IMG/VR virus record: IMGVR_UViG_3300035698_021428
Strand: one strand, 5' to 3'
Source: a virus
Length of the DNA stretch: 49,956 bases
Below the pieces are notes generated by a model, which did no database searches, was not told where the DNA came from, and saw nothing but the letters and a program-made list of their open reading frames with translations. Both the position numbers and the translations under genes were made by a program. Shown piece after piece: positions 23,437 to 26,127 of this stretch; the first letter of the stretch is position 1; each line of letters starts with the position of its first letter.

Positions 23437-26127
23437 ATGCAAGACAATGATTCCGGCGCAATCCGAGGATCATCAGGCGATCTTTTGATCCCTGAAGGTT
23501 CATATGCTCATTTTTAAGGACTAACAACTGGCGCAATTTCGACCAAGGTTGGGCCTGCAAGCGTTTCGCAATCGGGGCAAGAACGTCCTGTTGCGTTCGA
23601 TCCAGCAAGGCGACAATTCATTGAAGTTAGCCGAGAAAGTTCGGTCAAACTCAATGTTATCGCTGATGAAACCAGTTATGTTATTCTTTCAAATCCGTGC
23701 ATTGCAGTCGCAGACGGCGATGACCAGCTTATTTTTCCAGGATCTTCGGACAAGATTCCCAATCAAGGTCTAGAGAGCGGTCGAAAAGTTGTGGTTCATG
23801 GACCTGTCGAATTTTCGCTTTGGCCTGGACAGACTGCAGAAGTTGTCCCGGGTCATGCTCTTCGCTCAAATGAATATCTTGAACTTGTTGTTTATGATGC
23901 TGATGAAGCAAAAGCCAACTGGGAATCAGCCTCCGTTGTTGAGACCAAGAAAACTGGCGGCGATAAAGAAGATAAAGATGATACGCAGGTTACGTCTACT
24001 GCCCCTGCTGATCTTCTTATGGGACAACGATTGGTTGTCAAGGGAACTGAGGTTTCATTCTATCGTCCTCCAACTGGTATACAGGTTGTTCAGAACGAAG
24101 ACAATATCTTTATTCGACAAGCTGTTTCCCTTGAATTACTTGAATACTGTATTCTTATCGACGAAAATGGCAACAAAAGGTATGAGAAGGGACCAGCAGT
24201 TGTTCTTCCTCGTCCATCTGAACGATTTGAAAAAAGCTCTAGAGGCAATAGAAAATTTAGAGCCATTGAGCTTCAAGACCAGGCAGGCGTTCATATCAAA
24301 GCGCTCAAGACCTACCAGGATGACGACGGAAAAGATCGCAAAGCTGGTGATGAATTCTTCTTGACGGGCAAAGATCGTCCTATCTACTACCCTCGCGAAG
24401 AAGAAGCCGTTATTCCTTATAGCGATGGCGAAAAGATTCACTTCGCTGTTGCGGTTCCCAAGGGGGAAGGCCGCTACGTTATGAATAAGACCACCGGTGA
24501 GATCGCAACGATCATCGGCCCCAAGATGCTTCTTTGCGATCCGACTAATGAAGTCATCGTTCGTCGCATCCTTACTGACAGACAAAGTAATGATTGGTAT
24601 CCTGGTAATGATAACTCTAGGCAATACAATCGCAATCTTCGAGAGATTCAGGAAGCTGCAGGAACGGCTGGTGATTTTGTTGACGATACATCAACACGGC
24701 AGGCAGCAACCAGGGGGCTTCATTCGCTGCGAGAAAAAGGCAATCCAAGAGTAGGCGGAGCTTCGTTCTCAAGTATGTCCGCTTCCGCCGGATCGGAACG
24801 AGGTTTTGAAAGCTTCGAACAAGCTGGTTCAGCAATGATGGGAGAACTAGATCGGCCATCAAGCTATACAGAACCCAAAAGCATTACTCTTGATACACGT
24901 TTTGCAGGAGTTCCTGGTATTGAGCTTTGGACAGGCTACACCGTTATGGTCGTTGACAGAGAAGGAAACCGCCGAATCGTCAGCGGTCCAACCAATATTC
25001 TGCTCAATTATGACGAGTCATTAGAAATCATAGAACTTTCTACCGGCAAACCAAAATCAACAAAAGGATTGATTCGCACAGTATATCTTCGCAGAGATAA
25101 TAATAAGGTTTCCGATTATGTTGAAGTTGAGACAAAAGACCATGTGAAAGTACAAGTAAAACTGTCATTCCTGGTCAATTTTGTTGAAGACAATCCTAAT
25201 GACGATCAGGATGATACCGATTATCAAGAGCGTTGGTTTGCTAGCGAAAACTATGTCAAGCTTCTTTGCGATCATGTTCGCTCGATTCTTAAGGGCGAAG
25301 CTAAAAAGCACGATATCAATAACTTTTATATCAACTCAACATCTATCATCAGAGATATCATTCTTGGTAATCGTCAGGAAGATGGCAGAACAGGTATGTT
25401 CTTTGAACATAATGGTATGCATGTTATCGATGTTGAGGTTCTTGGAACAGAAATTCTTGATCACAGCATTGCTTCGCTACTTACTGGCTCTCAGCGAGAA
25501 GCAGTTGAATCAAGTATTCGTCTTCAGTCTGCCGAAAGAACGCTTAATGTAACTGAGCAAATGGAAGCGATGTCTCGTAAAGAAGCAGTTGCTAAGAATG
25601 AGACCAAGAAGCACGCACACGATCTAACGATAGAAAGCATTGGAAGAACTCTGAAGGAGTCCCTAGCAGACATATCTTCAGAACAAGACAAGTCCGTTCA
25701 TAGGCTTACTGCTCGTACTGCCGAAGCTGAAGCTACTAAAATGGCAAACGTTATTGAGGCCGAAGCTGCGGTCGCAGGAAGCGAGATTGAGCGAGAAGAT
25801 CAGAAACTCGATCATGAACAGAAAATCTTAGAAGCAGAAGAAATAGCTAGGCTTGACAAGGAAGCGATTGAAACCGAAGTCAAGGCCACAGTTGATAAGC
25901 TCAAGGCCCTTGAAGGTTCGGGGTTGACCGACGTTCTTGCTACGCTTGGTCGAGAAGACTTCTTGACCCGTATAGCTGAATCCAGCAATCTTGAACGATT
26001 GATTGGCGGAGCTAGCGTCCAAGATACTTTGACCGGAATTTTCGGCGTTGAGTCGCCTATTGCTAAGGCGTTCGTTGCTATCAAGGCAGGAAAGCCGCTT
26101 GCTCAATCTTTGCTCAATAGCGACTAG
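23437..26127 (+). CDS. Major Vault Protein (MVP) homologue, ~896 codons, with an in-frame TAA at 23515-23517
   Basis: SD ggagaa then ATG 23437; MVP-repeat-like segments (TKVGPASVSQSGQERPVAFDPARRQFIEV; KAGDEFFLTGKDRPIYYPREEE matches MVP GDEWLFEGPGTYIPRKEVE); shoulder/cap-helix-like C-terminus (IDVEVLGTEILD..., long coiled coil, ...TLGREDFLTRIAES); listed ORF begins at GTG 23791 but homology continues upstream in the same frame across the TAA; ends TAG-TAA in tandem. Confidence 0.7.

Follow-up and report, generated by a model that had tools for sequence, protein, structure and literature searches.

The major vault protein (MVP) gene in a stretch of viral DNA of 49,956 nucleotides (IMG/VR record IMGVR_UViG_3300035698_021428; the whole stretch is called the window below) carries an in-frame TAA at codon 27, in a position where its homologues have a near-invariant glutamine. 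The most likely reading of the stop is that of an isolated, ordinary lesion in a genome with the standard code, and not that of a new decoding mechanism. Our leading reading, with a probability of about 0.45, is that of a genuine and very recent nonsense mutation, which would leave the MVP gene, an accessory one, with a null or near-null allele. An error in the consensus sequence at the same base is a serious contender and ranks only slightly lower.

The MVP gene and its stop at codon 27

The gene lies on the plus strand. Its Shine-Dalgarno sequence GGAGAA (23425-23430) can be read directly, 6 nt 5' of the ATG at 23437, and codons 1-26 (23437-23514) translate as MQDNDSGAIRGSSGDLLIPEGSYAHF. The TAA that follows occupies 23515-23517. 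Beyond it the frame is open for 869 codons, as far as the TAG at 26125-26127, and these codons (28-896; 23518-26124) encode the beta-repeat domains, the SPFH-like shoulder domain and the long cap helix, all intact. The TAG is followed by a TAA (26128-26130), which gives the gene a tandem stop (26125-26130). The first ATG, GTG or TTG in frame past the TAA at codon 27 is the GTG of codon 119 (23791-23793), and between the two only ATT and ATC occur as start-like codons in frame. The preliminary description of this DNA, which had the frame opened by ATG 23437 with its GGAGAA, interrupted by the TAA and restarted only at GTG 23791, is confirmed by the letters and their translation.

Upstream of the gene there is a promoter-like motif, CAGGTG-N14-TACAAT (23373-23398, plus strand), of which the window has three copies where 0.12 would be expected; every copy lies 5' of a plus-strand ORF. 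The region upstream of MVP in the closest relative, P0001, has the same motif together with a GGAGA Shine-Dalgarno sequence (ACGGAGA is conserved) and ATGCAAG. The motif is a putative promoter. Downstream of the gene, a hairpin of 12 pairs (26158-26185) and a T-run resemble an intrinsic terminator (26158-26195, plus strand), and the MVP unit thus looks monocistronic.

The protein that would result from reading through the TAA has the domains of a vault protein. With the Pfam gathering scores as cut-offs, it reaches 87.8 bits for MVP_shoulder (PF11978, cut-off 25), 33.5 for Vault_3 (PF17795, cut-off 28.8) and 29.4 for Vault (PF01505, cut-off 27), and the family profile matches the solved MVP chains in the PDB with E=6e-37. 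The structure modelled with AlphaFold is that of P0001 (915 aa, 55% identical, encoded on a 498.6-kb genome listed as viral in IMG/VR) and not that of the window protein itself. This model (mean pLDDT 79) matches the MVP cages with E=3e-35 and the R1-R7 crystal structures with E about 1e-14. Together, these matches in Pfam, in the PDB and at the level of fold identify the read-through product as a major vault protein of full length.

A search for MVP homologues finds 2280 sequences, and the best 120 are 810-1095 aa long. The counts of starts and of codon 27 are taken from an alignment of 121 sequences, namely the query and these best 120. The window copy has the domain set, the length class (810-1095 aa) and the start position of the phage and prokaryotic MVP homologues, some of which are source-labelled Myxococcota or Deltaproteobacteria, at identities of 42-57%; it is unlike them in having a premature TAA at codon 27. 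Among the 120 homologues, 118 start at or upstream of query residue 1, and none, the shortest being 810 aa, starts near the equivalent of 23791. They cover 95-100% of the 896-codon read-through product. In an alignment of 19 sequences the invariant columns include D15, L16 and A24 before the stop and G39, F61, Y81 and P87 after it, with P101, L112 and G115 as further invariant residues before codon 119, and the query departs from the family alignment at none of its invariant columns. Its residues 1-26 are 57.7% identical to those of P0001. The MVP similarity on both sides of the TAA, as it was first described, is thereby genuine: orthologues beginning at about the 23791-equivalent, which had been named as the finding that would speak against it, are not found, and 118 of the 120 start level with 23437. 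By this alignment the ancestral MVP is full length, with ATG 23437 as its start.

What did the TAA replace? In its column 118 of the 120 homologues have Gln and 2 have Ala, and a stop at this codon is absent from all 120. The codon of P0001 in this position is CAG, and the window's own MVP gene has 17 CAA and 15 CAG codons. With CAA as common as CAG in the gene, one C-to-T transition (CAA to TAA) suffices. In the model of P0001, residue 27 is located within a beta-strand (residues 22-28, pLDDT about 96).

The rest of the window follows the standard code. A greedy ORF map with this code gives a coding density of 88-89%. Taking any single stop as sense adds 1-4 points, and taking TAA as sense gives about 0.90-0.91, no more than the others. 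The stops of 62 likely genes or ORFs are TAA (23), TGA (25) and TAG (14). Four syntenic genes that end in TAA finish 0-3 codons from the C-termini of their relatives on the P0001 contig, and all 12 other genes common to that contig align in a single frame that no stop interrupts. In the window's about 50 kb the TAA in MVP stands alone, with no other in-frame stop found to be spanned by homology. Other candidates of this kind were rejected. The ORFs flanking the in-frame TAA at 27335 and those at the TAG read-through candidate 46376 are adjacent genes with their own Shine-Dalgarno sequence and ATG, and the same signals mark separate genes at the TAA 5' of a 994-aa minus-strand gene (5130(-)). 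At the TAG read-through candidate 41511, the upstream segment overlaps an ORF in a different frame.

Nonsense mutation or consensus error

On the leading reading, Gln27 would have changed from CAA to TAA by a single C-to-T transition in an ancestrally full-length MVP gene. Ribosomes that start at 23437 would release a peptide of 26 residues, and the full-length MVP would not be made. The MVP copy would then be a null or near-null allele, a very young pseudogene. The locus has the makings of a simple nonsense lesion: the stop is one substitution away from sense, the rest of the ORF is intact and conserved, and there is no canonical start before 23791. This reading would imply that the T at 23515 exists in the phage itself and did not enter with the consensus, and that MVP is probably dispensable for the phage. 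We call MVP an accessory gene because it is sporadic among phage contigs, as is also seen in a preprint (10.1101/2023.11.10.566534).

Classical ochre nonsense alleles likewise arise in one step from CAA to TAA at an early Gln codon, with the gene otherwise intact. As is known for ochre alleles and tRNA suppressors from E. coli and T4 genetics, a Gln-inserting ochre suppressor could in principle rescue such an allele. The classical suppressed alleles differ from the one considered here in that no UAA suppressor is found in the window.

How old would such a lesion be? Over residues 1-118, the mean identity to 17 other homologues is 35.7% for the query and also 35.7% for the intact relative. The N-terminus shows no sign of decay or of relaxed constraint, and the change, if it is real at all, must be very recent. 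The age of the lesion is not measurable, with an N-terminus that is undecayed and the remaining 869 codons intact, and this absence of decay is exactly what a consensus error predicts.

It is possible, and we hold the view tentatively, that the stop arose at the edge of a homopolymer as an error of base calling or of the consensus, that the true genome has CAA, and that MVP is intact and normally expressed. The true sequence would be TTTTCAAGG, for which the assembly gives TTTTTAAGG. The change turns TTTT-C into a run of five T (23511-23515), and only 1.3-1.4% of the possible one-step nonsense substitutions in the ORFs of the window would create a run of 5 or more. A second conserved gene, for a PhoD-like protein, is broken by an extra A in an A7 run (35941-35947). 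The ORFs at 35514-36005 and 35848-38157 jointly match one intact PhoD-like protein of 878 aa with 86% identity and 100% coverage; compared with the intact, 83%-identical homologue, the extra A is the sole non-triplet difference, and the other indels are triplets. Apart from MVP and this gene, no broken conserved gene was found in the window. With both lesions at homopolymers, the pattern fits an error-prone sequencing step, and the second broken gene is a quality flag for the assembly. An error is also consistent with the lack of decay on either side of the stop and with the match to all the family-invariant columns, and nothing else in the sequence hints that MVP is dispensable here.

Against an error stand the other homopolymers of the window. 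Of the 56 long genic homopolymers, counted from 6 letters for A/T and from 5 for G/C, 55 preserve the frame, and among these is a T7 in a gene with a clean alignment to the P0001 contig. This argues for a low error rate per site and for an assembly that looks good. Substitution errors are rare in consensus assemblies. In addition, only about 4% of random substitutions in the MVP gene give a stop, and one visible nonsense error would thus imply many invisible ones. IMG/VR, the JGI metagenomes and the GTDB genomes contain no match to the exact letters on either side of the stop, with any codon allowed in its place; the 778-aa product and the neighbouring histidine kinase, looked up as identical sequences, give no match, and neither does megablast against the GenBank phages.

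The preliminary description had listed a nonsense mutation with a truncated product, a base-call error and stop read-through as options. The nonsense mutation and the base-call error are still leading, while read-through is poorly supported and a useful truncated product is unlikely. The near-invariant Gln, the two tRNAs with the anticodon CUA and the second broken gene at a homopolymer had been overlooked.

Possible decoding of the TAA or restart after it

Can the TAA be decoded with the tRNAs at hand? In the window ARAGORN finds 10 elongator tRNAs, a tmRNA and two CUA tRNAs, to which Rfam adds one tRNA and the relaxed ARAGORN settings two tRNA-Ser calls. As had been stated before, a UUA anticodon is missing from the tRNAs of the window, whether these are called by ARAGORN (default and relaxed) or by Rfam. 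An Rfam tRNA at 7453-7553 was rejected as a suppressor: the reading of its anticodon is uncertain (TGC with an insertion), and it is not UUA. The two CUA tRNAs, of the amber suppressor type, are both on the plus strand and both found by ARAGORN, at 42649-42720 (Rfam tRNA, 68.6 bits) and at 45505-45577 (63.9 bits). By standard wobble the anticodon CUA reads only UAG, so these two tRNAs do not explain the TAA at codon 27. Scans of IMG/VR with the anticodon arms of both, with C or T at position 34 so as to include an ochre paralogue, give no match, and with the radical-SAM protein as query no counterpart of the 40-50 kb tRNA region was found for the relative. The tRNA-Gln(UUG) (11249-11322, plus strand; ARAGORN and Rfam) is near-cognate for UAA and could give at best a low, background-level insertion of Gln.

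Read-through of the TAA, either by an ochre-suppressor tRNA encoded outside the window or by the near-cognate tRNA-Gln(UUG), would insert Gln and give the wild-type protein, and MVP expression might possibly be gated in this way to a stage of infection. We consider this unlikely. It would agree with a stop placed exactly at Gln, the residue that near-cognate or classical UAA suppression would restore, and with an MVP gene that is undecayed. The window also invests in translation, with at least 11 elongator tRNAs, a tmRNA, a class II aminoacyl-tRNA synthetase, the two CUA tRNAs and its own tRNA-Gln(UUG). MVP genes in other phage contigs have an in-frame TAG at Gln (L080 compared with L073) or a TGA at a conserved Trp (L072), which means that MVP genes occur in probably recoded phages. 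However, no UUA-anticodon tRNA is found in the 50 kb even with relaxed settings, and UAA is the tightest stop, one that ends 23 of the 62 ORFs at positions matching the C-termini of relatives. No other gene of the window has an in-frame TAA or TAG inside its homology, and the stop is missing from 120 of 120 homologues. The 136 nt around and after it fold no better than shuffles (z = -0.61), and its context is UAA-G. With the standard code, an unconserved stop, no downstream structure and no cognate tRNA in the window, programmed read-through or recoding has little support.

Programmed read-through, as for the A1 protein of Q-beta at a UGA or for retroviral gag-pol at a UAG with a pseudoknot, shares with this locus a frame that continues into conserved coding sequence. 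In the programmed cases the stop is conserved, is a leaky UGA or UAG, leads to a C-terminal extension of a complete protein, and often has a 3' stimulator. The MVP stop, in contrast, is a UAA unique to this sequence, interrupts the first domain at codon 27 and is followed by no unusual structure; its column is not conserved as a stop (118 Gln, 2 Ala), and it has neither a leaky context nor a 3' stimulator. A frameshift or bypass at CAT-TTT-TAA was rejected as well, for the zero-frame homology is gapless and the +1 frame reaches a TAA after two codons. Read-through with Gln at residue 27 would give the tryptic peptide GSSGDLLIPEGSYAHFQGLTTGAISTK.

A decoding of TAA27 as Gln by a UUA tRNA elsewhere in the genome, or by a modified C34 on a CUA tRNA, is quite improbable. 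If true, the synthesis of MVP would be gated by the supply of the suppressor, and it would be a first, gene-specific step to TAA-to-Gln recoding. TAA-to-Gln, if real, would be unreported in phages, TAA being the one stop that is not known to be recoded there: the recoding reported for phages is only TAG-to-Gln (code 15) and TGA-to-Trp (code 4) (Borges et al. 10.1101/2021.08.26.457843), and phage stop-codon recoding has been validated (PMC9523058). The window resembles such phages in having an in-frame stop at a conserved Gln and tRNAs of the suppressor type. It differs from them in that there is a single TAA, TAA is a frequent terminator, the coding density is normal and the suppressor tRNAs read TAG. 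The features by which phage recoding is recognized, that is many in-frame stops, a depletion of the recoded codon (here TAA) and a cognate tRNA, are absent from the window.

It is very doubtful that translation begins again at GTG 23791 (778 aa), or at a non-canonical codon just past the stop, and yields a functional MVP without its N-terminus. The GTG does open an ORF of 778 codons, and there are ATT codons in frame after the stop, but for 91 codons after the stop there is no ATG, GTG or TTG, and the sole purine-rich tract before the GTG is a weak GAGAG about 15 nt upstream. In the model of P0001 the 23791-equivalent falls in the middle of a strand (residues 114-118), and at least nine N-terminal strands (pLDDT 89-96) would be lost. 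The skipped region keeps the family-invariant G39, F61, Y81, P87, P101, L112 and G115, and, as seen above, no homologue among the 120 begins there. The truncated product of the preliminary description is unlikely to be a useful one, given the 91 codons and the mid-strand start.

A genome-wide reassignment of TAA to Gln, similar to code 6, whose one point in favour is the TAA/Gln match at codon 27, is effectively refuted for this window by the normal standard-code density, the 23 of 62 ORFs that end in TAA and the four syntenic TAA-ended genes that stop 0-3 codons from the ends of their relatives.

Genomic setting and significance

The window contains genes for a class II aminoacyl-tRNA synthetase, many tRNAs, a tmRNA, a PhoD-like phosphatase, a phosphate porin and a pilin-like protein, together with many small ORFs that have no family match. 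It is syntenic with the P0001 contig in the order of a PAS histidine kinase, two response regulators, a small ORF, MVP and the tmRNA, with a porin gene later on. MVP homologues are also present in the 462-kb and 735-kb uncultured-phage records LR756500, LR756501 and LR756503. The gene content, the synteny with the 498.6-kb IMG/VR genome and the MVPs of these three records point to a huge phage, and the source is most likely a huge marine phage of the about 0.5 Mb class. Near the MVP gene, we also note a PARP/WGR gene 5 kb downstream, the tmRNA gene immediately downstream and the two suppressor tRNAs nearby. Viral MVPs have already been reported (preprint 10.1101/2023.11.10.566534). The context of the window MVP looks like that of a huge marine phage and unlike that of a bacterium or a gut phage.

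If either of the leading readings, the young nonsense mutation or the consensus error, is right, the stop has little significance and is mainly an annotation issue. The MVP gene call should start at 23437 and be flagged as interrupted, rather than be given as a 778-aa protein from GTG 23791. The stop matters only if it is real and decoded as Gln. The locus is more interesting than its stop: here an element that resembles a huge phage carries an MVP gene preceded by a promoter-like motif of its own.

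Genes and signals around the MVP gene

We begin with a hexamer pair, CAGGTG-N14-TAYAAT, which occurs three times in the window where 0.12 occurrences are expected. Each copy (17321-17346, 23373-23398 and 26712-26737) lies just upstream of an ORF on the plus strand. The motif is conserved upstream of the MVP gene in the syntenic 498.6-kb relative (L001, at about 9921-9946), and we regard it as a candidate element-specific promoter. Directly downstream of the MVP terminator is a tmRNA gene (26303-26655) with the tag ANSNPLRIAA, and the relative keeps the same placement for its own tmRNA gene (L001 13972-14323, tag ANSNTLRMAA).

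Further downstream, at 5 kb from the MVP gene, a protein combining a WGR domain with a PARP catalytic domain is encoded at 31080-32729, followed by a 727-aa ORF (32744-34927) without a family match. The WGR/PARP protein, being encoded near an MVP gene, recalls PARP4, a partner of the vault. In one bacterial MVP homologue (P0107, 1095 aa), a WGR domain is found within the same protein as MVP. The locus of the 498.6-kb relative, however, has an nSTAND3/AAA gene near MVP in place of WGR/PARP.

A frameshifted PhoD-like gene

The PhoD-like phosphatase gene (35514-38157) is split by a +1 frameshift at a run of seven A residues (35941-35947), and the removal of one A from this run would restore the frame. 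The two resulting ORFs, 35514-36005 and 35848-38157, jointly match an intact 878-aa protein (P0121) with 86% identity and full coverage. At the DNA level, the homologous gene (L083/L084) is 83% identical, with the similarity ending at the gene boundaries. Possible explanations of the frameshift are an error, a genuine mutation and slippage-dependent expression. Genes for phosphate acquisition (the PhoD-like gene, a phosphate-selective porin and a weak PHO4 match) are found in the window outside 1-14200.

tRNA genes and the translation-related island

Two high-scoring tRNAs with the anticodon CUA, the amber-suppressor type, are located at 42649-42720 and 45505-45577; the second has a D arm and an anticodon arm that may resemble those of tRNA-Trp. 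TAG serves as an ordinary terminator in the window, where it ends 14 of the 62 ORFs, and no in-frame TAG was seen there. The targets of the two tRNAs, if any, must lie outside the window, elsewhere in the genome.

The region 1-14200 is a dense translation-related island, with at least ten tRNA genes dispersed between small ORFs and a short (384 aa) class II aminoacyl-tRNA synthetase of the Asp/Lys/Asn type (649-1803). An odd or intron-containing tRNA at 7453-7553 (Rfam, 46.9 bits) was missed by ARAGORN at default settings. In the Rfam call, its anticodon arm is longer than usual by about 30 nt. ARAGORN with introns allowed identifies a tRNA-Ala(TGC) that carries an insertion of 12 nt.

MVP genes in other IMG/VR contigs and in phage records

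In-frame stops are also present in MVP genes of other IMG/VR contigs. The gene in L080 has a TAG at 10097, where its near-identical relative L073 encodes Gln, and the coding density of L080 is 0.74 with the standard code versus 0.86 with TAG as sense. The gene in L072 has a TGA at 1848, at a position (W498) where all of the closest homologues have Trp. Both stops are of classical recoding types, and the two genes look like those of recoded phages.

Unannotated MVP homologues are found in three GenBank records, LR756500.1 (20958-23366), LR756501.1 and LR756503.1 (both at 17638-19593), with 36-38% identity and 78-98% coverage. Since these records belong to uncultured phages of 462 kb and 735 kb, MVP recurs in huge phages.
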